Assembly: GCA_003695625.1 (NCBI GenBank)
Contig: RFIB01000100.1
Coordinates: forward strand, 1-38,450
Length of the DNA stretch: 38,450 nucleotides
Direction of reading: 5' to 3'
Source of the DNA: Acidobacteriota bacterium
Lineage (GTDB): Bacteria; Acidobacteriota; Polarisedimenticolia; J045
Within the stretch, counting starts at the first letter, position 1. Each line of letters begins with the position of its first letter. The position numbers and the translations under genes are program-made. Shown piece by piece: positions 20,078-33,046 of the stretch. Under the pieces are notes generated by a model that did not search any database, was not told the origin of the DNA, and saw nothing but the letters and a program-made list of their open reading frames with translations.

Positions 20078-21154
20078 ATGGAGATCGCCCTCTGCGGCCT
20101 GGGCCGCGCCGGAAAGACGACGCTGTGGTCGATCCTGACCGGGCGCGAGGTGCCGCCCGGGGCAAAGCCGGAAACGCGCCGCGGCGTCGCCCGGGTCCCC
20201 GATCCGCGCCTCGATCGGCTGACCGCGCTGTTCGAGCCGAAGAAGCACACGCCGGCGACGGTGACCTACGTCGACGTGCTGGCCCTCGAACGCGGGACCG
20301 GCCGGACGGACAACCCGGTGCTCGCCGAGCTGCGCCCGGCCGACGCACTGATGCTCGTGCTGCGCGCGTTCGACGACCCGGCCGACCCTCACCCCGAGGG
20401 CTCGATCGATCCGGCACGCGACCTCGAGCTGATGGAGACCGAGTTCCTGCTCGCCGACCTGGCCGTGGCCCAGCGCAGGATCGAGCGGCTCGACGCGCTG
20501 ATCCCCAAGACCAACCGCCCCGAGGACCGCGCCGAGCGCGAGCTGATGCACAAGGTCGTCGCCTCCCTCGAGTCGGAGCAGCCGCTGCGCGAGGCGGAGT
20601 TCACGGCAGACGAGCGCAAGGCGCTGCGCGGATTCGCGTTCCTGACCGCCAAGCCGCTGCTCGTCGCGGTCAATCTCGGGGAGGACGACACGACGAAGAT
20701 CGGCGCCCCGCCGGCCGAGCTGGGCCTCGGCGCGCTCGAGGGCCGGTCACAGGTCGACGTCGTCGCGCTGTCGGCACGGATCGAGGAGGAGATCGCCGCG
20801 CTCTCGCCCGAGGACGCCGAGGCGTTCCGCCGCGAGCTGGGCATCGCCGAACCCGCGCTCGACCGGCTGATTCGCGCCAGCTACCGGCTGCTCGGGCTGA
20901 TCTCGTTCTTCACCGTCGGCAAGGACGAGTGCCGCGCGTGGACGATCCGCGAAGGCACCGACGCGCGGACGGCCGCCGGGACGATCCACACCGACCTCGA
21001 GCGCGGGTTCATCCGGGCCGAGGTGATCGAATGGGACCGGCTGCTCGAGGCCGGCTCGCTCGCCGCGGCGCGCGAGCGGGGGTGGCTGCGGCTCGAGGGG
21101 CGCGACTACGTCGTCCGCGACGGCGACGTGCTGCACGTGCGGCACGCGTCCTGA
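20078..21154 (+). CDS. ychF: YchF/Ola1-like P-loop ATPase (DUF933/TGS C-terminus)
   Basis: GLGRAGKTT, VPDPRLDRL, FLTAKP, LISFFTVG...RAWTI, AGTIHTDLERGFIRAE, RLEGRDYVVRDGD. Confidence 0.8.
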   Translation: MEIALCGLGRAGKTTLWSILTGREVPPGAKPETRRGVARVPDPRLDRLTALFEPKKHTPATVTYVDVLALERGTGRTDNPVLAELRPADALMLVLRAFDDPADPHPEGSIDPARDLELMETEFLLADLAVAQRRIERLDALIPKTNRPEDRAERELMHKVVASLESEQPLREAEFTADERKALRGFAFLTAKPLLVAVNLGEDDTTKIGAPPAELGLGALEGRSQVDVVALSARIEEEIAALSPEDAEAFRRELGIAEPALDRLIRASYRLLGLISFFTVGKDECRAWTIREGTDARTAAGTIHTDLERGFIRAEVIEWDRLLEAGSLAAARERGWLRLEGRDYVVRDGDVLHVRHAS

Positions 21155-21315
21155 GCCGGCCGCGGGTTCCGCTTGCGGAAGGAAGAATCCGTCCGGCCGG
21201 GCGCTGCGGGCGCTCCGCGGCCGCCGCCCGGAGCCGCTCGACATACGCGCTCGCAGGGGCCATTTTGTAGGAACGGGGAGTCCGGGCGGGGCCCGACCGC
21301 GCGGGGAGAATCGAG

Positions 21316-22248
21316 ATGACGACGGTCGAGCTCGCCGCCCAGCCGGCCGGGGCGCCACGTGTGCCGTTCCGTACGCGGCTGTTCCGTGTCGTGCACCGGA
21401 TGTTCGCGACAGTCCTGTTCGGGTTGCCCGTGCTCGTCATTGCGTGGGGGCTGCCCTACTACACGGCCCCGCTGGCCGAGCGCGTGCGCCATCCGGCCCA
21501 TCGCGTGCTCAACCCGGCCGGGGACATCGGCCAGGCGTTCGGCGTGCTGGCGTTCGCGCTGTTCCTGTTCCTGTGGCTCTACCCGCTGCGCAAGCGTGTC
21601 GGCCGGGCCCCGTGGCTCGGCCCGGTCCGCGGCTGGCTCGACGTGCACATCGTCGCCGGGCTGGCGGTCCCGCTGATCGGCGCGGTCCATGCGACGTTCC
21701 GGTTCCAGGGCGTCGTCGGCCTCGGCTACGCGGCGATGCTGGTCGTCGCGCTGTCGGGGGTCGTCGGCCGCTACCTCTACGTGCGGATTCCTCGCGGAGT
21801 GAGCGGACTGGCGGCGTCGCGGGAGGAGATCGCCCGCCTGCGGGACGCGATGCTCGCGGAGCTCGCGGGACGCACGGGAATGTCCGCAGACGAGCTGTCG
21901 CGGGCGCTGATCGTCAGCGAGCCGGTCCCGCCCAGGCTCGGGATCGTCGCGACCTTCACCCGGCTGATCCGCGACGACCTGCGCCGCCGGCGGGCCGCCC
22001 GCAGGCTCGTGCGCGAGTGGCGGCGATCCGGCGCGGGCAGCCGCGCCGAGCGCGACGCCGCGCGGAGCGTTCTCCGCCTCGCCCGCCGGCAGATGGCGCT
22101 CGCGCAGCAGATCCGGATGCTCGAGGCGACGCAGCGCGTCTTCGGCTACTGGCATGCCGCACACCTCCCGGTCGCGATCACCGCGATGATCGCCGTGCTG
22201 ATCCACGTCGCGGTCGTCGTTTCCCTCGGGGTCACCTGGTTCTACTGA
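21316..22248 (+). CDS. Polytopic inner-membrane protein with TM histidines, putative b-type cytochrome
   Basis: About 5-6 hydrophobic segments; YPLRKR, WLDVHIVAG, GAVHATF, SGVVGRYLY, YWHAAHLP, VLIHV. Confidence 0.65.
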   Translation: MTTVELAAQPAGAPRVPFRTRLFRVVHRMFATVLFGLPVLVIAWGLPYYTAPLAERVRHPAHRVLNPAGDIGQAFGVLAFALFLFLWLYPLRKRVGRAPWLGPVRGWLDVHIVAGLAVPLIGAVHATFRFQGVVGLGYAAMLVVALSGVVGRYLYVRIPRGVSGLAASREEIARLRDAMLAELAGRTGMSADELSRALIVSEPVPPRLGIVATFTRLIRDDLRRRRAARRLVREWRRSGAGSRAERDAARSVLRLARRQMALAQQIRMLEATQRVFGYWHAAHLPVAITAMIAVLIHVAVVVSLGVTWFY

Positions 22249-22309
22249 CGGTCCGGTGGTACCGGCGCGCCCAGCCGGCTTCCATGCGTTCGACGGGAGA
22301 GACCGATCG

Positions 22310-23755
22310 ATGGAGATGCTGCTGACCACGGCCGGCTTCCTGGCGATCACGGCGCTCGCCGTGCTGTGGCATCTGCGACGCACCGGCCCGCCCGCGGCGG
22401 CGGCCAGCGCACCGACGGGGGAGCCCTGCCCCCGCTGCAGCACGCCGATCGTGCGCGGTGCGACGTTCTGTCCGGGCTGCGGCGTTCCGGTGCAGGTCTG
22501 GGACGTCGTGCGGGCCCCGACGCGGGACCCTGCGACCGCCGGCGCGGACGACGGCGCAGCGAAGCACGCCGTGGTGCGCGCGGATGCGTGTGTCGGCTGC
22601 GGCACGTGCGTCGACGCCTGCCCGGAGGACGGCGCGATCCGCCTCGAGGGCAAGCTGGCGGTCGTCGACCAGCAGAAGTGCGTCGTCCACGGTGCCTGCG
22701 TGAGCGCCTGCCCCGTCGGCGCGATCGTGATCACCACCGGCGAGGCGGTCCAGCGCGTCGAGGCGCCGGAGATCGGCGACGGCTTCGAGTCCAACGTGCC
22801 GGGCGTGTACATCGTCGGCGAGCTCGGTGGCCGCGGCCTGATCAAGAACGCGATCAACGAGGGCAAGATTGCCGTCGAGCACATCGCGGGCCGCATCGCG
22901 CAGTCGCCGCGCCCGGACGAACCGGACGTCCACGACATCGTGATCGTCGGGTCGGGTCCCGCCGGCCTGAGCGCCGCCCTCGAGGCCCGGCGGCAGAAGC
23001 TGTCCGCCGTGGTGCTCGAGCAGGGTTCCCTGGCCGAGAGCATCCGCAAGTATCCGCGCCGCAAGCTGCTGCTCGCCGAGCCGGTCCGGATCCCGCTCTA
23101 CGGCGACCTGTGGGTCGCCGACGCCTCCAAGGAGACCCTGCTCGAGGTGTGGGAGACGATCGTCGCCAACTCGGGCATCACGCTCGAGACGCACTGCCGG
23201 GTCGAGAACGTCGCGCGTCACGGCGACCTGTTCGAGGTGCGCGCGGGCGAGCGTGCCTTTCGCGGGCGGTTCGTCGTGCTTGCGATGGGCCGCCGCGGCA
23301 CGCCGCGCAAGCTCGGCGTTCCGGGCGAAGAGCTCGACAAGGTGTTCTACGACGTGGTCGAGATGGACATGTTCCGCGGCCGGCGCGTGCTCGTCGTCGG
23401 CGGCGGGGACAGCGCCGTCGAGTCGGCGCTCGGGGCGGCCAACCAGGAGGGTGCGACGGTCACGCTGAGCTACCGCGGCGAGCGGATCACGCGCGCCAAG
23501 CCGCGCAACATCGAGAAGCTCGAACGGGCCGTCGCCGAAGGGCGCATCGAGCTGCTCTGCCCGAGCCAGGTGGTCCGAATCCTGCCCGACTCGGTCGAGC
23601 TCCGCGTCGGAGGCGCGACCCGGACGATCCCCAACGACGACGTCGTGATCCGCATCGGCGGCGAGGCCCCGTACGCGTTTCTCGAGCGGATCGGCGTGCG
23701 GATCGTCACCAAGGACGTCCCGCTGGCCACGGAGCTCGAGGGTGTCGGTGCCTGA
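22310..23755 (+). CDS. Membrane-anchored zinc-ribbon + 2x[4Fe-4S] + FAD/NAD(P)H oxidoreductase (TrxR/FNR-type fold)
   Basis: N-terminal TM; CPRC/CPGC; CVGCGTCVDACP; CVVHGACVSACP; VGSGPAG; LAMGRRG; VVGGGDSAVE; LSYR. Confidence 0.85.
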   Translation: MEMLLTTAGFLAITALAVLWHLRRTGPPAAAASAPTGEPCPRCSTPIVRGATFCPGCGVPVQVWDVVRAPTRDPATAGADDGAAKHAVVRADACVGCGTCVDACPEDGAIRLEGKLAVVDQQKCVVHGACVSACPVGAIVITTGEAVQRVEAPEIGDGFESNVPGVYIVGELGGRGLIKNAINEGKIAVEHIAGRIAQSPRPDEPDVHDIVIVGSGPAGLSAALEARRQKLSAVVLEQGSLAESIRKYPRRKLLLAEPVRIPLYGDLWVADASKETLLEVWETIVANSGITLETHCRVENVARHGDLFEVRAGERAFRGRFVVLAMGRRGTPRKLGVPGEELDKVFYDVVEMDMFRGRRVLVVGGGDSAVESALGAANQEGATVTLSYRGERITRAKPRNIEKLERAVAEGRIELLCPSQVVRILPDSVELRVGGATRTIPNDDVVIRIGGEAPYAFLERIGVRIVTKDVPLATELEGVGA

Positions 23756-25841
23756 CGCGCTGCTTCCCGGCCGCCGGGCCGCCCTGACGACGTTCCTGCT
23801 GCTGCTCGCGCTCGCCGGCGCAGGGGCGGCGCACGGCCAGGTGTCCCCCGGGCCGCTGTCCGCCCCGCATGCGGAGCTCGAGGGCAACCGCAACTGCACG
23901 AAGTGCCACGGCGGCGGCGAGGTCGGACAGGACCGCCGCTGCCTCGAGTGCCACCGCGGCATCGCGTCGCTGGTCGAGCGGCGGCGCGGGCTGCACGGAC
24001 TCGAGGGCCGCACGCGGTGCGGCCACTGCCACCCCGAGCATGCCGGCGTCGACTTCGAGCTCGTCGACTGGGGCGTGCCGGGCCGCGAGAAGTTCGACCA
24101 TGGACGCACCGGCTGGCCGCTCGAGCAGAAGCACGCCGCGGCCGCCTGTGACGCCTGTCACCGTCCCGACCGCATCGCCGATCCGGCCCATGCCCTGGAG
24201 CCGAAGCCCGAGGCCCTGGCCCACGTCGGCCTCGACCCGCGCTGCACCACATGCCACGAGGACGCCCACCGCGGCGCGCTCGGCGACGACTGCGCCCGTT
24301 GTCACGACGCGCAGGCGTTCCGTCCGGCGCGCAACTTCGACCACGCGAAGACGGCGTTTCCGCTCACCGGGCGCCACGTCAAGGTCCGCTGTGACGACTG
24401 TCACCTGGCCGACCGGCTGCGCCCGGCGCGCGACGCGCAAGGCCGGCCGGTCCCGGTCTACAAGCCGGTCCCGCACGCCTCGTGCGCGGACTGCCACCGG
24501 GACGTGCACCGCGGGCGGCTCGGGACGGACTGCGCCCGCTGCCATGTCACGGACGGGTTCCGCGTCATCCGGCGCGGCGCCTTCGACCACTCGCGGACCC
24601 GGTTCCCGCTGCGCGGCGCCCACGCCCGGACGAAGTGCGCGAAGTGCCACGGCGAGGGCGAGCGCCGCGTCGCCGCTCCGCGGTTCGACGCGTGCGCGAT
24701 CTGCCACCGCGATCCGCACGACGGCAAGGCGACGATCGCCGGGCGCGTGGCCCACGACTGCATCGTCTGCCACGACGAGCGCGCCTTCAAGCCGTCGACG
24801 TTCACCGTCCGTGACCACGCGAAGACCGGCTATCCGCTCGAGGGGGCCCACGCCCGCACCGCGTGCGCGGCGTGCCACAGGCCCGCCGTGTCGCCCGCGG
24901 GTGCGCCGCGCGCCCCCGGATCGGACGTCAGGTTCCGGATGGACCACGCGCGCTGCACCGACTGCCACGAGGATGCGCATGGCGGACAGCTCGCGAGCGA
25001 CGGCCGGCCGGCACCCGACTGCGCCGAGTGCCACGACGTCGCCGCATTCCGGCCGTCGCGCTTCGGCCGCGCGGAGCACGCCCGCCTCCGGCTGCCGCTC
25101 GAGGGGCGGCATGCCGAGATCGAATGCCGCGCCTGCCACGGTCCGGACCGCCGGGGTCTGCCCGCGCTGCCGGGCCGCGACGTGCTGGGCCGCGCGGGCG
25201 TCGCCGTCCGGCTCGACGACGCGCGCTGCGCCTCGTGCCACGCCGATCCGCACGACGGCCGGCTGACACCCACGGGCACCGACTGCGCGGCCTGCCACGA
25301 CGCCTCGACGTTCCGCCCGTCCCGCTACGACTCCGAGCGCCACCGCGAGGCGCGCTTCCCGCTCGAGCAGGCCCACCGCACGGTCCCGTGCGTGCTGTGC
25401 CACCGCGAGCTCGAGAACCGCGCCCGGCCGAAGAGCACGCTCGTCGCCGCACCGGGCCGGCCCGCGGGAGGCCTGACGTTCGCGGTTGCGAAGCAGGAGT
25501 GCCGCGACTGCCACGACACGCCCCACGGCAGCCAGTTCGACACGCGGGAGGGAGGCGCCGCCTGCTCGACCTGCCACGACCAGGGTGCGTTCCGGCCCGC
25601 GAGCCGGTTCGACCACGACCGGGACGCCCGGTTTGCACTGGGCAAGGCGCACCGAAAGGTGGCCTGCGCCGAGTGCCACAAGGCTCCGGCCGAAGGCCGG
25701 CCGGTCGTCTACCGCCCGCTGGACGGCCGCTGCCGCGCGTGCCACGGCCCGGGGCGCGGCGCGCCCGCGCTCCCCGACGACGCGGAGGGCGCGGACGCGC
25801 GGAGCGGCCGCGGTCAGAAACGCCAGCTCAGCGTCAGGTAG
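23742..25841 (+). CDS. Exported multiheme cytochrome c, 23 CxxCH motifs
   Basis: Manual count of 23 CxxCH; Sec-type signal ending GAAHG/Q; SPGPLSAPH N-terminus; repeating FDH-x-T-xFPL-G-xH units. Confidence 0.93.
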   Translation: MSVPDALLPGRRAALTTFLLLLALAGAGAAHGQVSPGPLSAPHAELEGNRNCTKCHGGGEVGQDRRCLECHRGIASLVERRRGLHGLEGRTRCGHCHPEHAGVDFELVDWGVPGREKFDHGRTGWPLEQKHAAAACDACHRPDRIADPAHALEPKPEALAHVGLDPRCTTCHEDAHRGALGDDCARCHDAQAFRPARNFDHAKTAFPLTGRHVKVRCDDCHLADRLRPARDAQGRPVPVYKPVPHASCADCHRDVHRGRLGTDCARCHVTDGFRVIRRGAFDHSRTRFPLRGAHARTKCAKCHGEGERRVAAPRFDACAICHRDPHDGKATIAGRVAHDCIVCHDERAFKPSTFTVRDHAKTGYPLEGAHARTACAACHRPAVSPAGAPRAPGSDVRFRMDHARCTDCHEDAHGGQLASDGRPAPDCAECHDVAAFRPSRFGRAEHARLRLPLEGRHAEIECRACHGPDRRGLPALPGRDVLGRAGVAVRLDDARCASCHADPHDGRLTPTGTDCAACHDASTFRPSRYDSERHREARFPLEQAHRTVPCVLCHRELENRARPKSTLVAAPGRPAGGLTFAVAKQECRDCHDTPHGSQFDTREGGAACSTCHDQGAFRPASRFDHDRDARFALGKAHRKVACAECHKAPAEGRPVVYRPLDGRCRACHGPGRGAPALPDDAEGADARSGRGQKRQLSVR

Positions 25842-27433
25842 ACCTGGTCGTACTCCTGGCCTTCACCCGTCGATCGCTCGGCGTCGAGAAGCAGGTAGAT
25901 CGAGCGCGTGACGAGCAGGTCGATGTCGAAGCCGTACCACGGCAGGCTGCGCGGCTCCCCGACACCGTCGACCGGCTCGTCGTCGCGTCGGCCGGCCTCG
26001 AGGCCGACCCGCAGCCGCTCGCCGAACGGCACGTCGACACCCAGCACGTGGAGCCAGCCGTCGTACAGGGCGTTCGTGTAGCGCGTCGAGCGCGTGCGCA
26101 GCCCGAGCCGGGCCGCCGTCAGGCGCTCGAGCCGGGTCGTCAGCGTCCAGCTGTCGGAACTTCCCGCGGCGCCTCCGTTCGCGCCGCGGAAGCGCAGTCC
26201 GACACGAAAGCGCTCGAACGGGCGGACGTTGACCCCGGCCCAGTAGCCCTGGCGGCTGCTGTCGTCGAACTCGGTCTCCGGCGTCGTGCGGTCGCGATAC
26301 AGCCGCACGTTCTGGCGGTCGTCCCAGCCCGCGTCGACCACGATCCGGTCCGACAGCCTGTATCGCCCGAAGACGAACGTCGACGTCGGTTCGAGCGTGC
26401 TCTGGCCCGAAGCCGCGCGCCAGCCGCGGTTGATGTCGATCTCCTGGATCAGCGAGACGAACAGCCGCTGCGTCCGGTAGCGGCCCTGGAGGTACAGGAA
26501 CTCGCGGTTGATCTCCCCGCCGACGTACGAGCCGATCACCCCCGCGGTGCCCTCCCACCCGCGACGCGGGTCGCGCTCCGAGCGCGCCTGCAGGTACGCG
26601 CCGTACTGCCGCGTCCCGGTCGACACGGACATCGTGGCGGGATCGGGTTCGGAGCCGACGAAGGCGCCGGCCCCCCAGCGCGGCCGCTGGTACTCGGCCA
26701 GCGCGCCGTCGAACAGGCTGATGCCGGCCAGTGCCTGGGAGAACTGGCGTCCGACGGAGACCCGCCACGGCGTGCCCGCGGGATACCACTCGACGGACGC
26801 GCGATAGACGCGCGTGCGATTGACGGTCTCGTCCGTTGCGTCCCGGTACGTGCGGCGCACGCGCGTGTCGAGATGCACGCCGAGGCCGCTGCCGCCGACG
26901 TCGCTGCCGTCGAGGCGCACGGTCAGGGCCGGCTGCGAGAATCCGCCGCCGGTGTCGGCGCGGTCACGGACCGCCAGCCAGGCGAGGCCGACCCGCCCGC
27001 GCAGACCCGCCTCGCGCAGGCGTTCGCGCAACGGCGTGCGTGGCGCACGGGGCGGCGGCGGAGCCGGCGGGGCCGGCTCCGGCGGGGCGACGACGGGCGT
27101 GACGCTCTTCCGGGCGACGAGGCGGACCTCGTCGCCGATCGCGACGCGCTCGCCGACGGGGGCGCCGTCCTGGGGCACCAGCACCGCACGGTGTCCCGAG
27201 ACCTCGCGCACCTCGAGCACCAGCACCACGTGGCCGTCCCGCACGACGTCCACCCGGTCGCCGACGACGACGCCGGACCGGGCGCCGGCGTCGATGTAGA
27301 CCGAGCTGCCGCTGACGTACGTCACGCGGGCCCGGTAGGTGGCGAGCTGTTCCTCCGCGCGCGACGGCGCGCCAGGCGCGAGCGCCAGCGCGAGCGCGAG
27401 CGCGAGCGCGACGGACCTCCCCCGGCCCGTCAC
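25814..27433 (-). CDS. Outer-membrane beta-barrel (putative cytochrome-associated porin)
   Basis: GTG start overlaps the upstream cytochrome stop (GTGA); signal peptide; amphipathic strands; C-terminal YLTLSWRF beta-signal ending in Phe. Confidence 0.8.
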   Translation of the reverse strand: MTGRGRSVALALALALALAPGAPSRAEEQLATYRARVTYVSGSSVYIDAGARSGVVVGDRVDVVRDGHVVLVLEVREVSGHRAVLVPQDGAPVGERVAIGDEVRLVARKSVTPVVAPPEPAPPAPPPPRAPRTPLRERLREAGLRGRVGLAWLAVRDRADTGGGFSQPALTVRLDGSDVGGSGLGVHLDTRVRRTYRDATDETVNRTRVYRASVEWYPAGTPWRVSVGRQFSQALAGISLFDGALAEYQRPRWGAGAFVGSEPDPATMSVSTGTRQYGAYLQARSERDPRRGWEGTAGVIGSYVGGEINREFLYLQGRYRTQRLFVSLIQEIDINRGWRAASGQSTLEPTSTFVFGRYRLSDRIVVDAGWDDRQNVRLYRDRTTPETEFDDSSRQGYWAGVNVRPFERFRVGLRFRGANGGAAGSSDSWTLTTRLERLTAARLGLRTRSTRYTNALYDGWLHVLGVDVPFGERLRVGLEAGRRDDEPVDGVGEPRSLPWYGFDIDLLVTRSIYLLLDAERSTGEGQEYDQVYLTLSWRF

Positions 27434-29190
27434 GGCTTGCGCCCGTCCGGATGGCAGGAGTAGCAGGCCTGGCTGTCGTACCGGTAGCCCGCGACGTCCT
27501 TGTGCTGGTTGTCGGTCTTGTTGCGGTCGGAGTGCGGGTGGCAGCCGAAGCAGGAGAACACCGCGAAGTTGTTGGGCTGCACGTGGCAGTCGCTGCAGCG
27601 ATCCCACTTGCCGCGGTGCTTGCCGGAGTAGATCGGGAACCACGGGTCGTGGTCGAAGTTCGCCCCGGCCCAGCCGCTCGTCGTGTGGCACTGGGTGCAG
27701 TCGGTCGGGAAGCCCGCCGCGGCGTGGTTCGGGTCGGTCGTCCGCTCGTAGTCGTCCCGGTGGCACGCGTAGCAGTCCGTCGGCGTGCCGGCGTAGACGC
27801 CGCCGGCATGGCACGCGGTGCAGTCCAGCGCACGGTGGGCGCCGGTCAGCGGGAAGTTCGTCGCGTCGTGGTCGAAAGTCGCTCCGGCCCAGCTGGAGGT
27901 GTCATGGCACGCGACGCAGTCGGTCGGGAACCCCGCCGTGACGTGGTTCGGGTCGGTCGTCCGCTCGTAGTCGCCCTGGTGGCACGCGTAGCAGTCCGTC
28001 GGCGTGCCGGCGTAGACGCCGCCGGCGTGGCACGCGGTGCAGTCCAGCGCACGGTGGGAGCCGGTCAGCGGGAAGTTCGTCGCGTCGTGGTCGAAGTTCG
28101 CTCCGCCCCAGCCGCTCGTCGTGTGGCACTGGGCACAGTCGGTCGGGAACCCCGCCGTGACGTGGTTCGGGTCGGTCGTCCGCTCGTAGTCGCCCTGGTG
28201 GCACGCGTAGCAGTCCGTCGGCGTGCCGGTGTAGACGCCGCCGACATGGCAGCGGGTGCAGTCCACCGCGAGATGGGCGCCGGTCAGCGGGAAGTCCGTC
28301 AGCGCGTGGTCGAAGTCGGCATCCTTCCAGCCGGTCGGACCGTGACACAGGGCGCAGTCGGTCGGGAATCCCGCCGCACCGTGGTCGGGGTTCGTCGTCC
28401 GCTCGTAGTCGGCCTGGTGGCACGAGAAGCAGTCGACGCTCGTGCCGCTGAACGTGTCGCCGACATGGCACTGCGCGCAGTCGAGCCCGCGGTGGGCACC
28501 GACGAGCGGGAAACCGGTCAGCGCGTGGTCGAAGCGGGCGGTCGTCCAGCCGATCGGCGTGTGGCAGGCCCCGCAGTCGGTCGGGAAGCCGCTGTTCACG
28601 TGGTCCGGATCGGTCGTCGCCCGGTAGTCGTCGATGTGGCACGTCTCGCATTCCGGTGCCAGCCCGACCCAGCGACGCGCGCCCGCCGGCTGGGGCGTAT
28701 GACACGCCTCGCAGTCGGCCGCGAGATGGCTGCCGACCAGCGGAAAGCGCGTCTCGGTGTGCATCTGCACGAAGTTGCGCCGGTCGATGAACGAGCGCGG
28801 CACGTGGCAGCGCGCGCAGTCCGGTCCGAGCTCGCCGAGGTGCACGTCCTGGTGACAGGCGTTGCAGTCGGTCGGCGCGTCGGCGAAGACCAGCGACGCG
28901 TGACACGCCCGGCAGTCCGCGGTGCGGTGCGCCCCGACCAGTTCGAAGCGCGACAGCCGCCCGTGGTCGAACTCGGGACTGATCCGCGCCGGCTTCCAGC
29001 CGTCGTCGCCGTGGCACAGCGCGCAGTCCTCGATGAAGTCGCCGTGCGGGTAGTCCTCGTCGTCGTCCTGCGCCGCGGAGATCCGGCCCGCGGCCGAAAG
29101 ACAGCACGCGATCACGGCGAGCGCGACGACCGGACCGCGGAACGCGACGACGCGGCCGCACCCGGTTTCCCGGGTCCGTTTCGCTGACAT
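27430..29190 (-). CDS. Exported (possibly lipoprotein) multiheme cytochrome c, 22 CxxCH motifs
   Basis: Manual count of 22 CxxCH; hydrophobic leader with possible lipobox VIA/C; 73-aa triheme repeats. Confidence 0.93.
   Translation of the reverse strand: MSAKRTRETGCGRVVAFRGPVVALAVIACCLSAAGRISAAQDDDEDYPHGDFIEDCALCHGDDGWKPARISPEFDHGRLSRFELVGAHRTADCRACHASLVFADAPTDCNACHQDVHLGELGPDCARCHVPRSFIDRRNFVQMHTETRFPLVGSHLAADCEACHTPQPAGARRWVGLAPECETCHIDDYRATTDPDHVNSGFPTDCGACHTPIGWTTARFDHALTGFPLVGAHRGLDCAQCHVGDTFSGTSVDCFSCHQADYERTTNPDHGAAGFPTDCALCHGPTGWKDADFDHALTDFPLTGAHLAVDCTRCHVGGVYTGTPTDCYACHQGDYERTTDPNHVTAGFPTDCAQCHTTSGWGGANFDHDATNFPLTGSHRALDCTACHAGGVYAGTPTDCYACHQGDYERTTDPNHVTAGFPTDCVACHDTSSWAGATFDHDATNFPLTGAHRALDCTACHAGGVYAGTPTDCYACHRDDYERTTDPNHAAAGFPTDCTQCHTTSGWAGANFDHDPWFPIYSGKHRGKWDRCSDCHVQPNNFAVFSCFGCHPHSDRNKTDNQHKDVAGYRYDSQACYSCHPDGRKP
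27650..28533 (-). repeat. Intragenic tandem repeat, 219-bp period (73 aa, 3 hemes), four full periods
   Basis: TGGTCGAA anchors at 27650, 27869, 28088, 28307, 28526; GTAGCAGTCCGTCGGCGTGCCGG at 27769, 27988, 28207. Confidence 0.92.
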
Positions 29191-29424
29191 GGGAAGCCCT
29201 CTTGGTTCGCCGCGCGGCGCCGGGCATGCGCCACGCGTTCCCTCCATCCCTCGTCCCGCGGGGGTCCGGACCGCGGCGAGCGCCTCGGGGACCGGTCCGG
29301 CCGAACCCTTCGGGACGACAGGATTATCCCCCGGGGTAACGTGGCGTGTCGAGCCGGTCCGGGCAAGCGGGGGCCGGCCGTGGCGGCCGCACGCGGCCCG
29401 GCGGGACGGCCGCGACCGCCCGCA

Positions 29425-30816
29425 CTAGTCCGCGACGATCCGCCGCACTGCGGAGACGACGATCTCGTCCTCGCCTTCGAGCAGGGTCCGCGGATCGAGC
29501 AGCACGCGGCCCGCCTCGACGCGCGCGACGACCGGCGGCTCGTGCCCGCGAAGCCGGCGGGCCAGCTCCTGCTCGTCGAGCCCGTCGACGCCGAGCGCGA
29601 CGAGCCGCGTGGGCAGCGCCTGCTCGGGTGCCGCCCCGCCGCCGACGCGGCCTTCCCCGTCGATCACCGCCGCCCGGACGCGGTTGCCGAGCGCCAGGAG
29701 CGCGTCCGCGAGCCGGACGGCGCGCGTCTCGAGCTGTTCGGGCGACGCGGCGAGCATGCGCGCCACCGGCGGGCCCTGCGCCCCGGGGTCGGGGACGAGC
29801 CACGCGCGGCAGGTCCACGACAGCGCGGCGAGCGTCAGCTTGTCGCAGCGCAGCGCGCGCGCGAGCGGATTGCGCGCGCAGCGGGCGACCAGCTCCCGCC
29901 GTCCGACGAGGATCCCCGCCTGCGGTCCGCCGAGCAGCTTGTCGCCGGAAAAGCAGACCAGGTCGGCTCCGTCGGCGAGCAGCTGCTCGACCGACGGTTC
30001 GCTGTCCGGCCCGGGTGCGTCGCGATACAGGCGTCCGCAGCCCTGGTCGACGACGAGCGGCAGTCCGTGGTCCGCGGCGATCGGAGCCAGCTCGCGCACG
30101 CCGACCTGCCGCGTGAACCCGACGATCCGGTAGTTGCTCGGCCACACCTTGAGCAGCAGCGCGACGTCACGGCCGCAGACGCGTGCGTAGTCGTCGGGAT
30201 GCGTCCGGTTGGTCGTGCCGACCTCGACCAGGCGCGCCCCGGAGCGCTCGAGGATCTCCGGCACGCGGAAGCTGCCGCCGATCTCGACCAGCTCCCCGCG
30301 GCTGATCGCCACGCCGCGGCCGAGCGCGAGCGTGTTGAGCGCCAGCAGCAGCGCCGCGGCGTTGTTGTTCACCGCGAGCACGCCGTGGTCAGGAAACAGC
30401 AGCTCGAGCCACGGCGCGACGTGGGCCTGCCGGCTGCCGCGCCGTCCCGAGCCGAGGTCGAACTCGAGATCCGAGTAGCAGGCGGCGACCCGTGCGACGT
30501 GCTCCGCCGCCGCCGGCGCCAGCGGAGCGCGCCCGAGGTTGGTGTGCACGACCACGCCGGTGGCGTTGACGACGCGCCGCGGCCCCGGCCGGTCGAGCCG
30601 CTCGAGCCGCGCCCGCACGGCGCGGGCGAGTTCCTCGTCGGCGGGCGGAGGCGCGCCGTCCGCGACCCGGCGCCGCGCGCGCTCGAGCTCCGCGCGGGCC
30701 GCGTGGACGATCGCGCGATGCGCCCAGCGCTCCGCCAGCTCCCGGACCTCCGGCCGCGCGAGCAGCCGGTCGACACCGGGCAGGCCGGCGCGGCGGTCCC
30801 CGGCGGCGCGGCTCAT
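29425..30816 (-). CDS. selA: L-seryl-tRNA(Sec) selenium transferase
   Basis: VVNATGVVVHTNLGRAPL, VNNNAAA, SRGELVEIGGSFRVPEI, EVGTTNRT, FSGDKLLGGPQAG (PLP lysine), RALRCDK. Confidence 0.95.
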   Translation of the reverse strand: MSRAAGDRRAGLPGVDRLLARPEVRELAERWAHRAIVHAARAELERARRRVADGAPPPADEELARAVRARLERLDRPGPRRVVNATGVVVHTNLGRAPLAPAAAEHVARVAACYSDLEFDLGSGRRGSRQAHVAPWLELLFPDHGVLAVNNNAAALLLALNTLALGRGVAISRGELVEIGGSFRVPEILERSGARLVEVGTTNRTHPDDYARVCGRDVALLLKVWPSNYRIVGFTRQVGVRELAPIAADHGLPLVVDQGCGRLYRDAPGPDSEPSVEQLLADGADLVCFSGDKLLGGPQAGILVGRRELVARCARNPLARALRCDKLTLAALSWTCRAWLVPDPGAQGPPVARMLAASPEQLETRAVRLADALLALGNRVRAAVIDGEGRVGGGAAPEQALPTRLVALGVDGLDEQELARRLRGHEPPVVARVEAGRVLLDPRTLLEGEDEIVVSAVRRIVAD

Positions 30817-32870
30817 CGGGCGTTCTCCAGCGTCCGGGCGGTGCGCTCGAGGAACGGATCGCCCGGCGCCCGGCCCCGCAGCGTGGCGAGCAGGCGCCGC
30901 GCCTCGTCGTCGCGCCCCTGCTCGCGCAGCAGGGCCAGCGCCCCCTCGACCGCGTCGCGGCGCGTCGGTGCGAGCGCGAGGGCCTGGCGGAACGCGGCGA
31001 GCGCGGCGTCCGCGTTGCCGCGGGCGCGCTCGACGCGACCGAGCAGCTCCCACCCCTCGGCGTCGTCGGGACGGCGCTCGAGGTACCGCCCGAGGCGCGC
31101 CGCGGCCTCGTCCTCGAGACCGGCGCCGAGTTCGGCCGCGGCCAGCCGCGTCTCGAGCCCGACGTATCCCGGCAGCAGACCGGACAGGCGGAGCCACAGG
31201 TTGCGCGCCTCGAGGTGGCGGCCCCGCTCCTCGAGGAACGTCGCGTAGAGCCGGTAGCCGAGATAGAACGTCGGCTGGACCTCGATCAGCCGGCGGAACA
31301 CCTGCTCGGTGCCGGGATCGTCGCCGAGCGCCTGGCGTGCCCGCGCCAGCCGGAGCAGGAACTGCGGATTGTCGGGATCCCGCTCGAGCAGGCGCTCGAC
31401 GAGCCGGGCGGCGGCCTCGGCCTGTCCGGCGAGCAGCAGCTCGCGCGTGCGCTGGAACCGGTCGTAGTCGTCGATCGCCTCGCGCGGCGAGCGCCCTTCA
31501 CGCGCGGGCAGCGGGTCGTCGTCGCTGCCGGCCTCGCCGCGATCGGCCCCGCCGCCGCCGGCGACGTAGCCGAGCGACTCGAGCCGGGCGATCGTCTCCG
31601 GATCGGTCCCGCCGCCGAAGCCCGCCGCGGCCGCGAGCCGCGTCGTGTCGACGATCCGCCGCGCGATCTCGCGCAGGGTCGCGCCGAGCCGCGCGACGTC
31701 GTCCGGCCGCGCGCCCGAGAGGTCGCGTCCCTCGCCCGGATCGTCGGCGAGGTCGTAGAGTTCCGGGCGGGTCCCCTCGATCAGCTTGAGGTCCGCCTCG
31801 CGCAGCGCGTAGAGCGCCGACCAGCCGAACTCCTCGTGCGGGTAGAGTGTCTCGGCGTAGACCGGACCGGCGGCGCCTTCGGCCAGCAGGTCGCGTCCGT
31901 GCAGGCCGGCCGGCGGCTCGAGCCCGAGCAGCCCCAGCGCCGTCGGCAGCACGTCGACGAGGCTGGCCGGCCCCTCGATCACGGTCCCGGGAGCGATCCG
32001 TCCGGGCGCGCGCAGCAGGAACGGGACGTGCAGCGCCTCCTCGTAGAGCAGCAGTCCGTGTTCCTGCTCGCCGTGGGTGCCGAGCCCCTCGCCGTGGTCG
32101 GCGATCGCGATCACGACCGTGCGGTCCGCGATCCCCAGCTCGTCGAGCGCATCGAGCAGGCGGCCGACCATCGCGTCGGTGAACTCGATCTCCCCCGAGT
32201 ACGGATCGCCCCGGTGACGCCGCGCGTACTCGGCCGGCGGCGCCCACGGCGTGTGCGGATCGTACAGATGCACCCAGAGCAGGAACGGCTCGTCGGCGTG
32301 CCCGCGCAGCCAGGACAGCGCCCGCGCGACGACCTCGTCCCCGCGCCGCGTGTTGCGCCGGCGTCCGTCGGGCGCGTGGCCGTAGTCGTCGTCGTACAGC
32401 TCGAAGCCCTGCGCGAGGCCGAACATGCCGGCCGTCGTGAACGACGCCGAGACGGCCGCCGTGCGCCGGCCGTGCCGGCGGACGATCTCGGCCAGCGTGG
32501 TCACGTCGTCCGGCAGCCGGAAGCGCGCGTTGTTGCGCACCCCGTGGCCCGGCGGGTACAGGCCGGTCAGGATCGACGCGTGCGCCGGCGTGGTCAGCGG
32601 AACGGTGCTCCAGGCGCGACGCACGAGCGCCCCCTCGCGCGCGAGCCGTTCGAGCGCGGGGGTCGATGCGGGCGAGTCCGGCGCGTACGCGCTGACATGG
32701 TCGGCCCGCGTCGTGTCGAGCGTCACGAGCAGCACCGAGTCGAGCCCGCGCGGGCGCGACGCGCCGCCGCAGCCTGCGGCGGCGATCGCGAGCAGGATGA
32801 GTGCGGCGCCGCGCGCGGCGCGCGGGCCGGCCGGGCGGCGCGCGGCCGGAATTCCGTTCTCGTTCGGCAT
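30813..32870 (-). CDS. Lipoprotein sulfatase-like hydrolase with C-terminal TPR repeats
   Basis: Lipobox AAG/C; LLVTLDTTRADH, TVPLTTPAHASILTG, HLYDPH, ADHGE, LESLGY, then helical TPR repeats; ATGA overlap with selA. Confidence 0.85.
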   Translation of the reverse strand: MPNENGIPAARRPAGPRAARGAALILLAIAAAGCGGASRPRGLDSVLLVTLDTTRADHVSAYAPDSPASTPALERLAREGALVRRAWSTVPLTTPAHASILTGLYPPGHGVRNNARFRLPDDVTTLAEIVRRHGRRTAAVSASFTTAGMFGLAQGFELYDDDYGHAPDGRRRNTRRGDEVVARALSWLRGHADEPFLLWVHLYDPHTPWAPPAEYARRHRGDPYSGEIEFTDAMVGRLLDALDELGIADRTVVIAIADHGEGLGTHGEQEHGLLLYEEALHVPFLLRAPGRIAPGTVIEGPASLVDVLPTALGLLGLEPPAGLHGRDLLAEGAAGPVYAETLYPHEEFGWSALYALREADLKLIEGTRPELYDLADDPGEGRDLSGARPDDVARLGATLREIARRIVDTTRLAAAAGFGGGTDPETIARLESLGYVAGGGGADRGEAGSDDDPLPAREGRSPREAIDDYDRFQRTRELLLAGQAEAAARLVERLLERDPDNPQFLLRLARARQALGDDPGTEQVFRRLIEVQPTFYLGYRLYATFLEERGRHLEARNLWLRLSGLLPGYVGLETRLAAAELGAGLEDEAAARLGRYLERRPDDAEGWELLGRVERARGNADAALAAFRQALALAPTRRDAVEGALALLREQGRDDEARRLLATLRGRAPGDPFLERTARTLENAR

Positions 32871-33046
32871 CGGTCGCTCCCGTGCGCACGCCGCGGCGGA
32901 ACGCACGGGCGGGATTGTAGCGCGGCCGCGCGTCCCGTCCCCCGGCCGGGTGCGCGCCGCGCGCCCGCGTGGCCGCCACGGCGGCGCGGGCCCATCTTCT
33001 GCGGGGGAGACCGCCCTCCACGCGGCGGGCGGCCGGAGAGCGCCAC

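Follow-up and report, generated by a model that had tools for sequence, protein, structure and literature searches.

A five-gene cluster in a hot-spring acidobacterium, a candidate trans-envelope electron conduit of the PCC3 kind with a putative NAD(P)H input module

The window analysed here is the whole stretch of 38,450 nucleotides formed by positions 1 to 38,450 of contig RFIB01000100.1 (assembly GCA_003695625.1), which comes from a hot-spring acidobacterium. A cluster of five neighbouring genes fills positions 21316-29247. All five are real genes, with a GC3 of 0.92-0.93, and they are given here together with one promoter-like site.

mem, 21316..22248, plus strand: 310 aa, inner-membrane protein, candidate diheme b-type cytochrome of the PCC3/PCC4 IMP kind
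flav, 22256..23755, plus strand: predicted membrane-anchored zinc-ribbon / 2x[4Fe-4S] / TrxR-like FAD-NAD(P)H oxidoreductase, probable start at 22310
cytA, 23742..25841, plus strand: 699 aa, 23-heme c-type cytochrome with a Sec-type signal peptide, candidate periplasm-spanning wire
barrel, 25814..27433, minus strand: 539 aa, predicted outer-membrane beta-barrel of 22 strands, with a small periplasmic beta domain at the N-terminus
cytB, 27430..29247, minus strand: 605 aa, 22-heme c-type cytochrome with an alternative start at 29190, candidate barrel-inserted or outer cytochrome
sigma-70-like promoter match, 29323..29352, minus strand: consensus match upstream of cytB, in the 177-nt gap after selA

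The genes form two convergent units, mem-flav-cytA on the plus strand and cytB-barrel on the minus strand. The 3' ends of cytA and barrel overlap by 28 nt at 25814-25841, and the start of barrel overlaps the stop of cytB by 4 nt. The preliminary description of this DNA had reported a contiguous gene set, which is right as far as the filling of the interval is concerned; however, the genes lie on two strands and are not one transcription unit or operon here. Since the strand junction is bridged by contigs of four sequencing runs (20900-27061, 21097-27069, 25217-27071 and 25548-25927), the convergent arrangement is not an assembly error, and no inverted repeats were found at the ends of the inverted cytB-barrel segment. 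The five genes and 45 c-heme motifs announced at first were recovered when counted in the translations, with 23 CxxCH in cytA and 22 in cytB; by chance, far less than one motif per protein would be expected.

Concerning mem, the AF2 model (pLDDT 78) contains five long membrane helices and a helical cytoplasmic insert at residues 158-270; this insert of about 110 residues is conserved. The residues invariant among 23 sequences are W107, H111, H125, S147, G148, G151, W279, H280, H283 and H297, and they compose the motif W-x3-H-x13-H twice (W107-H111-H125 and W279-H283-H297) and SGxxG once. One of the two invariant H-x13-H pairs, H111/H125, is on helix 3 and the other, H283/H297, on helix 5. The protein had been called His-rich, a label that does not suit its 8 His in 310 residues, five of them invariant and placed within helices 3 and 5 or at their ends. 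On the basis of these motifs, mem is a candidate binder of two b hemes. Searches for a named family gave no match in Pfam or NCBIfam, including the ferric-reductase Pfam PF01794 at E<=10, and no relative was found in the PDB by fold (Foldseek, best E 0.31) or by profile (best E 0.81). In the ESM Atlas both mem and barrel match only unnamed 'hypothetical protein' clusters. The mem profile collects 3193 cluster representatives at E<=1e-3; the best 150 of these matches are all close relatives, and ten clusters that were looked up yielded one name, Fidelibacterota. When mem and flav were modelled as a complex, together with two hemes and two 4Fe-4S clusters, the prediction reached 0.01 (mark 0.32), a value that gives no answer either way.

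For flav, the proposal of a membrane-anchored Fe-S/FAD/NAD(P)H oxidoreductase agrees with our searches. Pfam returns Pyr_redox_3 (E 1.7e-41), Fer4_10 (6.3e-10) and DZR (2.8e-6), two [4Fe-4S] clusters are predicted, and the N-terminus carries a conserved hydrophobic anchor helix followed by basic residues, with no twin-arginine leader; therefore the cofactor domains should be cytoplasmic. The anchor is kept in the divergent Gemmatimonadales form of flav, and the FNR-type reductases described below also have N-terminal hydrophobic segments. A database protein 100% identical to flav has 481 aa, therefore the start is probably the ATG at 22310. Among solved structures, flav comes closest to YpdA/Bdr 7a7b (4e-42), followed by the TrxR-type ferredoxin-NADP reductase 3ab1 (3e-23), and the score against the YpdA model, 165 bits, is under the equivalog cut-off of 340. 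The zinc-ribbon Cys are invariant in the alignment, in which CxxCxxCxxxCP, GSGPAG, GGGDSA and a CxxHxxCxxxCP motif with a nearly invariant His are also seen; the flavin domain has no conserved redox-active CxxC. By its dinucleotide motifs, its family match and the absent CxxC, flav qualifies as a predicted TrxR-like NAD(P)H flavoenzyme.

The two cytochromes are densely packed with hemes (about 30 residues per heme in cytA and about 27.5 in cytB), and their number of His, 53 in cytA next to 1 Met and 45 in cytB, suffices for bis-His ligation of every heme. Pfam assigns Cytochrome_C7 (1.5e-27) and Cytochrom_c3_2 to cytA and Cytochrome_C7 (7.9e-29) to cytB, in which a 73-residue triheme repeat is visible at motif positions 257 to 517. 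The triheme repeat had been described earlier as unlike MtrA, and rightly: the repeats are c7-type, and both proteins remain under the cut-off of the MtrA/DmsE model TIGR03508 (42.8 bits for cytA and 23.2 bits for cytB, cut-off 192.2). Neither of them matched a PDB sequence at E<=0.001. Exactly 23 motifs are found in 35 of 48 complete ORFs orthologous to cytA and also in the orthologue of Emticicia, whereas cytB orthologues carry from 9 to 61 hemes; judging from these counts, the fixed and the variable number fit a putative periplasm-spanning part and a variable outer part, respectively. The idea of cytB as a possible lipoprotein lost ground, because its lipobox-like VIAC is not conserved and such a motif occurs in 6 of 61 complete orthologous ORFs.

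The beta-barrel noticed at first sight is also present in the AF2 model of barrel (mean pLDDT 84.5), where residues 145-538 form 22 strands and a small beta domain lies at the N-terminus; the C-terminus reads ...SWRF. A Pfam scan (E<=10) gave a weak FlgT_C match only, MtrB_PioB (PF11854) being absent, and the top 50 Foldseek matches in the PDB are generic barrels, the best of which is the PapC usher (TM 0.38). If the shear number is assumed to be 24, the standard formula for barrel geometry gives an estimated backbone diameter of about 40 A. With its 22 strands, the barrel has fewer than MtrB, which has 26.

Linkage between the genes was counted in 80 barrel-anchored loci, 48 of which are informative (at least 7 kb of flank). 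In 40 of these 48, the 10 kb upstream of the barrel gene contain all four partner genes, collinear in 25 loci and with the flav gene divergent in 15; these 40 loci span Acidobacteriota, Gemmatimonadota, Eisenbacteria, Latescibacteria and Binatia. Six more hold cytB and barrel only, and two are without flav. In 76 of the 80 loci, the gene immediately upstream of the barrel gene is cytB-like. Gaps inside the clusters contain no conserved extra gene family, and the longer ones hold more cytochrome-like sequence. Across 301 Acidobacteriota genomes, mem is present in 15 of the 16 that have barrel and in 24 of the 28 that have flav (E<=1e-60), mostly adjacent. The same five-gene set, adjoining ccsA, is carried by plasmid pEMTOL02 of the cultured Emticicia oligotrophica (Bacteroidota, DSM 17448). 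Whether flav and mem accompany the cytochromes and the barrel elsewhere had been raised as a question about the cluster, and the answer from the 40 of 48 loci, from several phyla and from the Emticicia plasmid is that they do.

More distant mem relatives were examined through the 20 loci that surround them. In 19 of these, mem has a neighbouring cytochrome ORF with 8-51 CxxCH, and 15 have a reductase nearby: seven of TrxR-type with 4Fe-4S, four with Pyr_redox_3 - 2x cNMP - Fer4 and four of FNR-type (FAD_binding_6, NAD_binding_1 and 2Fe-2S), that is, three architectures and two unrelated folds, each with an Fe-S domain. No reductase was seen in the five remaining loci, three of which are short contigs or have mem at the contig edge. 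A plasmid of Acetobacter aceti has three genes in a row, coding for an FNR-type reductase, for a mem-like protein and for a 7-heme cytochrome. Because the NAD(P)H flavo-Fe-S reductases that adjoin mem relatives belong to unrelated folds, the swapping of reductases beside mem (non-orthologous displacement) favours, as far as gene neighbourhoods can indicate, direct feeding by NAD(P)H over the published quinone link. The path NAD(P)H-FAD-FeS-heme b drawn in the preliminary description thus receives indirect support from these neighbourhoods, while its single electron steps are what we infer.

The cluster was compared with PCC3, a porin-cytochrome c complex predicted by He et al. in 2017 (PMC5566968) and still referred to as 'functionally unverified' (bioRxiv 10.1101/2025.02.27.639646). 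According to the description in the former paper, PCC3 comprises four genes in Alpha-, Beta- and Gammaproteobacteria, with no reductase and with a proposed quinone link; the periplasmic cytochrome has 21-27 hemes and the outer one varies widely, at 22-39 residues per heme, and the porins have up to 42 predicted strands (PMC5566968). The IMP of PCC3/PCC4 is described as having about 300 aa, five TM, SGxxG on TM4 and W-x3-H-x13-H on TM3 and TM5, and the bis-heme arrangement of the PCC3 IMP is likened to ferric-reductase/NOX domains (PMC5566968). As far as this description goes, our cluster shares with PCC3 a porin and two very large cytochromes (here 23 and 22 hemes, at 30 and 27.5 residues per heme), and mem, with 310 aa and five helices, has the full IMP motif set, invariant in 23 sequences. 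It differs from what is described in adding a flavo-Fe-S reductase gene, in cluster at 40 of the 48 informative loci, and in its gene order, its 22-strand barrel and the phyla in which it occurs. Because mem carries the published PCC3/PCC4 IMP signature, the cluster is, by motifs and described composition, a putative variant of the conduit kind predicted in 2017.

A comparison with PCC3 had already been drawn at the outset; the exact motif set of mem places the locus closer to PCC3 than was then allowed. The accompanying remark that no characterised system has this composition stands, since no characterised match was found. Our literature searches brought up no description of the five-gene composition or of a flavoprotein in PCC3; such reductases may, however, be recorded in the supplementary tables of PMC5566968, where the redox genes neighbouring PCC4 and further IMP clusters are tabulated. 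PCC4, as described in the same paper, lacks an outer cytochrome and has three small periplasmic ones with 4, 5 and 10 hemes; next to the IMP of PCC4 or of other IMP clusters, the authors mention a gene for an Fe-S protein (pfam13247) or 'another redox protein' (PMC5566968). The mem motif set is what our cluster has in common with PCC4 and with the other 'multiheme cytochrome + IMP' clusters described there.

The order from a periplasmic multiheme cytochrome to an outer-membrane barrel and an outer cytochrome, as proposed here, is that of MtrCAB/MtoAB (Shewanella, Sideroxydans) and of Geobacter Pcc/Ext. However, different from MtrCAB/MtoAB, the MtrB_PioB match is missing, the DmsE/MtrA score is below the cut-off and the cytochromes are chains of c7-type triheme units. 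MtrCAB/MtoAB and Geobacter Pcc/Ext draw electrons from quinol dehydrogenases and, to our knowledge, every characterised porin-cytochrome route (Mtr, Mto, Pcc/Ext) draws on the quinone pool. Tandem triheme units forming a long heme chain are known from the polymeric c7-type cytochromes of Geobacter, for example the dodecaheme GSU1996; cytA and cytB have similar c7-like units in tandem, but they are longer, belong to a porin cluster and, as said, match no PDB sequence at E<=0.001. In the NADPH oxidase / ferric reductase (FRD) superfamily, and in E. coli MsrQ with Fre, electrons pass from NAD(P)H through a flavin to two stacked bis-His b hemes, with H-x13-H pairs on two helices, a far-side acceptor (O2, Fe(III) chelate or MsrP) and no quinone. 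The two H-x13-H pairs on two transmembrane helices are shared by mem, whereas the dehydrogenase is here separate, membrane-anchored, of another fold and equipped with Fe-S clusters, mem has five helices and not six and no Ferric_reduct match, and the proposed acceptor is a heme wire.

From the gene content, cofactor motifs, conservation and linkage reported above, we infer electron-transfer steps, a direction, a location for cytB and an acceptor. The reading that we prefer, to which we give a probability of about 0.5, is that the cluster is a trans-envelope conduit of the PCC3 kind, which has a cytoplasmic input module of its own and carries electrons outwards. NAD(P)H would reduce the FAD of the membrane-anchored flav, and the two Fe-S clusters of flav would pass the electrons to a cytoplasmic-side heme b of mem (ligands H111/H283), from which they would cross the membrane to a periplasmic-side heme b (ligands H125/H297). 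They would then be taken over by the 23-heme cytA, spanning the periplasm, and would leave via the 22-heme cytB in or at the 22-strand barrel, possibly towards Fe(III) or Mn(IV) minerals, humics or a partner cell. Such a scheme would work without quinone and build no proton-motive force, and its role would be the dumping of reducing equivalents. Against this reading count the quinone link proposed for PCC3, the informative loci that lack flav or hold cytB and barrel only, the distant mem loci in which no reductase was seen, the lack of a match between mem and the ferric-reductase model or any PDB entry, the strand number of the barrel, lower than that of MtrB, and the rarity of a lipobox among cytB orthologues. 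Since complex I, heme-copper oxidases and about 24 further multiheme ORFs are encoded in the host genome as well, the cluster would be one route among several. A wider formulation, which we put forward more tentatively, regards the system as a 'split NADPH oxidase' on a 45-heme conduit, where electrons would go from flav to the diheme mem and to the surface, with no part for quinones or complex I; extended to the entire IMP family of PCC3/PCC4, this would mean that pyridine nucleotides drive it and that non-energy-conserving redox balancing is widespread in major soil and sediment phyla.

Among the alternatives, the one that survives best, and which we nevertheless consider unlikely, is that the conduit is real but linked to quinones, with mem acting as a quinol-oxidising or quinone-reducing cytochrome b and with flav reducing quinone like a type-2 NADH dehydrogenase or being an accessory. 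This is the model published for the motif-identical PCC3/PCC4 IMPs, the clusters of which are described without a reductase gene (PMC5566968). Given the complex I in the genome, a quinone pool is moreover to be expected. However, the three reductase architectures found beside mem relatives all have an Fe-S domain, which suggests a hand-over to a protein-bound centre, and we know of no Fe-S chains as a feature of type-2 NADH:quinone reductases. Also the conserved cytoplasmic insert of mem, of about 110 residues, could dock a partner.

It is improbable, in our opinion, that the system is not extracellular at all, with both cytochromes periplasmic, where they would store electrons or reduce a soluble substrate admitted by an ordinary porin. 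Such a view could call on the 55 of 61 cytB orthologues in which the lipobox-like motif is missing, on a barrel of only 22 strands with a Foldseek likeness to generic porins and ushers, and on the many mem and cytochrome loci without a barrel detectable at E<=1e-10, but it has to face the cytB-like gene placed directly upstream of the barrel gene in nearly all loci, with a 4-nt overlap in the window, and a cluster that encodes no catalytic domain besides the hemes, 45 of which are costly for a soluble substrate. Slightly less probable still is an inward conduit, by which electrons from Fe(II) outside the cell, from reduced minerals, from a cathode or from a partner cell would directly reduce NAD(P)+: a heme wire can in principle work both ways, Fe(II) oxidisers were the first organisms in which PCC3 was found (PMC5566968) and the PCC3 inner-membrane gene rose in the iron-oxidising Sideroxydans CL21 (bioRxiv 10.1101/2025.02.27.639646), but no energy-coupling subunit is encoded in the cluster, the reduction of NAD(P)+ (about -320 mV) from Fe(II) is uphill and inward electrons would oppose the inside-negative membrane potential, so that the flow 'in either direction' suggested at first appears doubtful.

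The new element of the cluster is the reductase. The pairing of mem with an NAD(P)H flavo-Fe-S protein offers a testable answer to the question of the metabolic link of PCC3/PCC4, open since 2017, and, if the outward reading is true, a direct outlet for NAD(P)H would change the modelling of energy yield and redox balance in extracellular electron transfer. The cluster is carried by Acidobacteriota, Gemmatimonadota, Eisenbacteria and Bacteroidota, abundant soil and sediment groups to which metal respiration is rarely attributed, and the cultured Emticicia oligotrophica DSM 17448 with its plasmid-borne set makes the question experimentally approachable.

Two minor points concern the region around cytB. 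A link with selenite reduction, suggested by the adjacency of selA and by weak ExtN/ExtO matches, was rejected: selA and ychF have no match in any of the 80 related loci, and the ExtN/ExtO model scores of about 16 bits (cut-off 200) reflect heme motifs only. The promoter-like site upstream of cytB, a consensus match alone, reads TCGACA-18-GATAAT (10/12) and is the sole one in 20900-29600, where 0.2 would be expected from shuffles.

The G+C content is 72-78% across most of the window, so that long open frames occur in every reading frame, and real genes were chosen among them by codon-position G+C. Five such genes fill positions 21316-29247:

21316-22248, + strand: mem, inner-membrane protein, 310 aa
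22256-23755, + strand: flav, membrane-anchored flavo-Fe-S NAD(P)H oxidoreductase, 499 aa counted from GTG
23742-25841, + strand: cytA, cytochrome, 699 aa, 23 CxxCH
25814-27433, - strand: barrel, outer-membrane beta-barrel, 539 aa
27430-29247, - strand: cytB, cytochrome, 605 aa, 22 CxxCH, alternative start at 29190

The five genes and 45 c-heme motifs (23 + 22) of the preliminary description are real, and its end coordinate, 29190, is the alternative start of cytB. The genes that it described as contiguous form two convergent units, mem-flav-cytA (+) and cytB-barrel (-), whose 3' ends share 28 nt (25814-25841). A database protein with 100% identity to flav has 481 aa, suggesting that this gene really begins at the ATG at 22310. 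The long + strand ORFs across 24863-29187 were rejected as Arg-rich shadow frames. Misassembly at the convergent junction was ruled out, since 25814-25841 is spanned by contigs of four other hot-spring metagenome runs, two of them 6.0-7.6 kb long and ~1% divergent. Contigs of all four runs end within the 73-residue triheme repeats of cytB (27100-28200), so cytochrome genes of this type are likely to be under-assembled in metagenomes. The flanks (ychF, selA, a sulfatase-TPR gene and various housekeeping genes) are unrelated to the cluster; selA (selenocysteine synthase) and the sulfatase-TPR gene share the strand of cytB and lie immediately upstream of it (29425-32906, -), and the sole sigma-70-like site of the region is inside the 177-nt gap upstream of cytB.

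The conservation of the set was evaluated by scanning the barrel alignment over one genome per species, which gave 80 loci (the best 80 of 146 matches), and by using the five window proteins as queries on them; these relatives are not independent, and the counts describe linkage and are not statistics. In 48 of the 80, here called informative, the sequence upstream of the barrel gene extends for 7 kb or more; in the other 32 the flank is too short to judge. The order mem-flav-cytA-cytB-barrel on one strand was found in 25/48, and the full set with flav divergent from mem in 15/48, every one titled Gemmatimonadota or its subgroups; flav is missing in two informative loci and cytB and barrel stand alone in six. 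Titles of the 80 loci name Acidobacteriota, Gemmatimonadota, Eisenbacteria, Latescibacteria and Binatia, and none of these loci has selA or ychF as a neighbour. Among 301 sampled Acidobacteriota genomes, mem is present in 37, barrel in 16 and flav (counted at E<=1e-60) in 28; 15 of the 16 barrel genomes and 24 of the 28 flav genomes possess mem, the latter two genes mostly a few kb apart on one contig. A tblastn search of plasmids also recovered the whole set on pEMTOL02 of Emticicia oligotrophica DSM 17448, in the order ccsA, mem (with both motifs), flav, cytochromes of first 23 and then 40 hemes, and a barrel-like protein. The co-occurrence of all five families across genomes is confirmed by these 25 + 15 loci and pEMTOL02. 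The plasmid location suggests that the set moves horizontally, and the species is a tractable cultured host in which the system can be tested. In this member of the Bacteroidota the set occupies 78197-89995 of the 100-kb plasmid (NC_018749.1), right after the cytochrome c biogenesis gene ccsA.

The mem protein has no match in Pfam, NCBIfam or PDB and, with 8 His in 310 residues, is not the His-rich protein first described. Alignment and model give five membrane helices and a helical, Arg-rich insert of ~110 residues, with invariant W107-x3-H111-x13-H125 in helix 3, S147-G-x-x-G151 in helix 4 and W279-x3-H283-x13-H297 in helix 5. By the positive-inside rule H111 and H283 would lie toward the cytoplasm and H125 and H297 toward the periplasm, a layout matching the geometry expected of two stacked b hemes. 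These are exactly the features (five helices, SGxxG, two W-x3-H-x13-H motifs) given by He et al. 2017 (PMC5566968) for the membrane protein of PCC3, a predicted porin-cytochrome cluster. [quoted passage not shown] In PCC4 and further clusters the paper notes an Fe-S gene or "another redox protein", with details in its supplements, and passages of later work keep PCC3 at four genes, its function untested (PMC9900912; bioRxiv 10.1101/2025.02.27.639646). No description of the present composition was found in the article texts covered by full-text literature searches. The system is new as a variant, of a kind predicted before but uncharacterised.

The membrane-anchored Fe-S/FAD/NAD(P)H oxidoreductase proposed at first is borne out by flav, which has in order a conserved N-terminal hydrophobic helix, basic residues, a four-Cys zinc ribbon, a two-cluster ferredoxin domain and a TrxR-like flavin domain (GSGPAG and GGGDSA motifs) in which the alignment shows no redox-active CxxC. 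Among solved structures it is closest to YpdA/Bdr and to TrxR-type ferredoxin-NADP reductases. Since flav carries no twin-arginine leader, its cofactor domains should be cytoplasmic. The second cluster motif is CxxHxxCxxxCP (22610-22730, residues ~124-134 when numbered from the ATG), where a nearly invariant His, kept also in the divergent Gemmatimonadales form, replaces the second Cys; it recalls His-ligated distal clusters that serve as electron exits.

Reductases were also found beside distant mem relatives. Mem without a barrel match occurs in 22 of the sampled Acidobacteriota genomes, and 20 of these loci were retrieved: an ORF with 8-51 CxxCH adjoins mem in 19, and a reductase gene of one of three architectures is beside or near it in 15. 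Seven of the 15 resemble flav, four (792-796 aa) join a flavin to a 4Fe-4S domain and also carry two cyclic-nucleotide-binding domains, and four are FNR-type (FAD_binding_6, NAD_binding_1, 2Fe-2S) with N-terminal hydrophobic segments. An Acetobacter aceti plasmid has three genes in succession, for an FNR-type reductase, a mem-like protein in which both H-x13-H pairs are present, and a cytochrome with 7 hemes. Two unrelated flavoenzyme folds, both ending in an Fe-S domain, recur beside mem-type proteins, and no other finding argues as strongly that a cytoplasmic NAD(P)H dehydrogenase would supply mem with electrons. The conduit may instead be linked to quinones, as was proposed for PCC3 even though the resemblance of its membrane protein to ferric reductase/NOX domains was remarked (PMC5566968).

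Both cytochromes are chains of c7-type triheme units with enough His for bis-His ligation of all hemes; cytA has one Met and a Sec-type signal peptide. The cluster belongs neither to the MtrB/PioB nor to the MtrA/DmsE family, in agreement with the distinction from MtrA already drawn. Heme number is 23 in 35/48 complete cytA orthologues and ranges from 9 to 61 among 61 cytB orthologues. A comparable motif to the lipobox-like VIAC of cytB is present in only 6 of these 61, so that its lipidation, suspected earlier, is doubtful. In the barrel model (pLDDT 84.5) 22 strands are preceded by a small N-terminal beta domain, and Foldseek returned generic barrels only. For some barrel relatives (P0106, P0078 and two Atlas clusters) the annotation gives an AMIN, SPOR or FlgT_C domain; this domain may replace the small one and suggests that the anchor, periplasmic or peptidoglycan-facing, is variable.

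Electrons would pass from NAD(P)H to the FAD of flav, its two Fe-S clusters, the two b hemes of mem, cytA, cytB, which would sit in or beside the barrel, and finally an external acceptor. Comparative data strengthen this interpretation, which is partly supported. Redox potential and membrane potential would both favour outward flow; less probably, the conduit may run inward, or the system may be purely periplasmic. Outward flow would dissipate, not build, proton-motive force, and disposal of reducing power is therefore its likely role. The source genome also encodes complex I and cytochrome c maturation, has three genes for heme-copper oxidases, and contains 26 ORFs with at least three CxxCH. 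In an organism so rich in cytochromes the conduit would be one route, and an accessory one. Large multiheme ORFs occur on two other contigs of this genome, C189 (5655-8953 and 14485-15672; 26, 16 and 6 CxxCH) and C4 (17336-25340; 19, 9 and 8 CxxCH).

Four loci deserve further mention. In L119 (6444-8822) and L130 (9835-12225) the two cyclic-nucleotide-binding domains lie between the flavin and Fe-S domains, beside mem relatives and 10-heme cytochromes, a hint of cNMP control of electron export. In L115 (8938-11007, -) a mem relative of 29% identity shares a 689-aa open frame with an N-terminal Ser/Thr protein kinase domain, possibly as a fusion, possibly as two genes read as one. The A. aceti version (NZ_AP023328.1, 55193-57915) is minimal, with an FNR-type 2Fe-2S reductase and no barrel; the plasmid is conjugative, and the genes lie inside its copper-resistance region.
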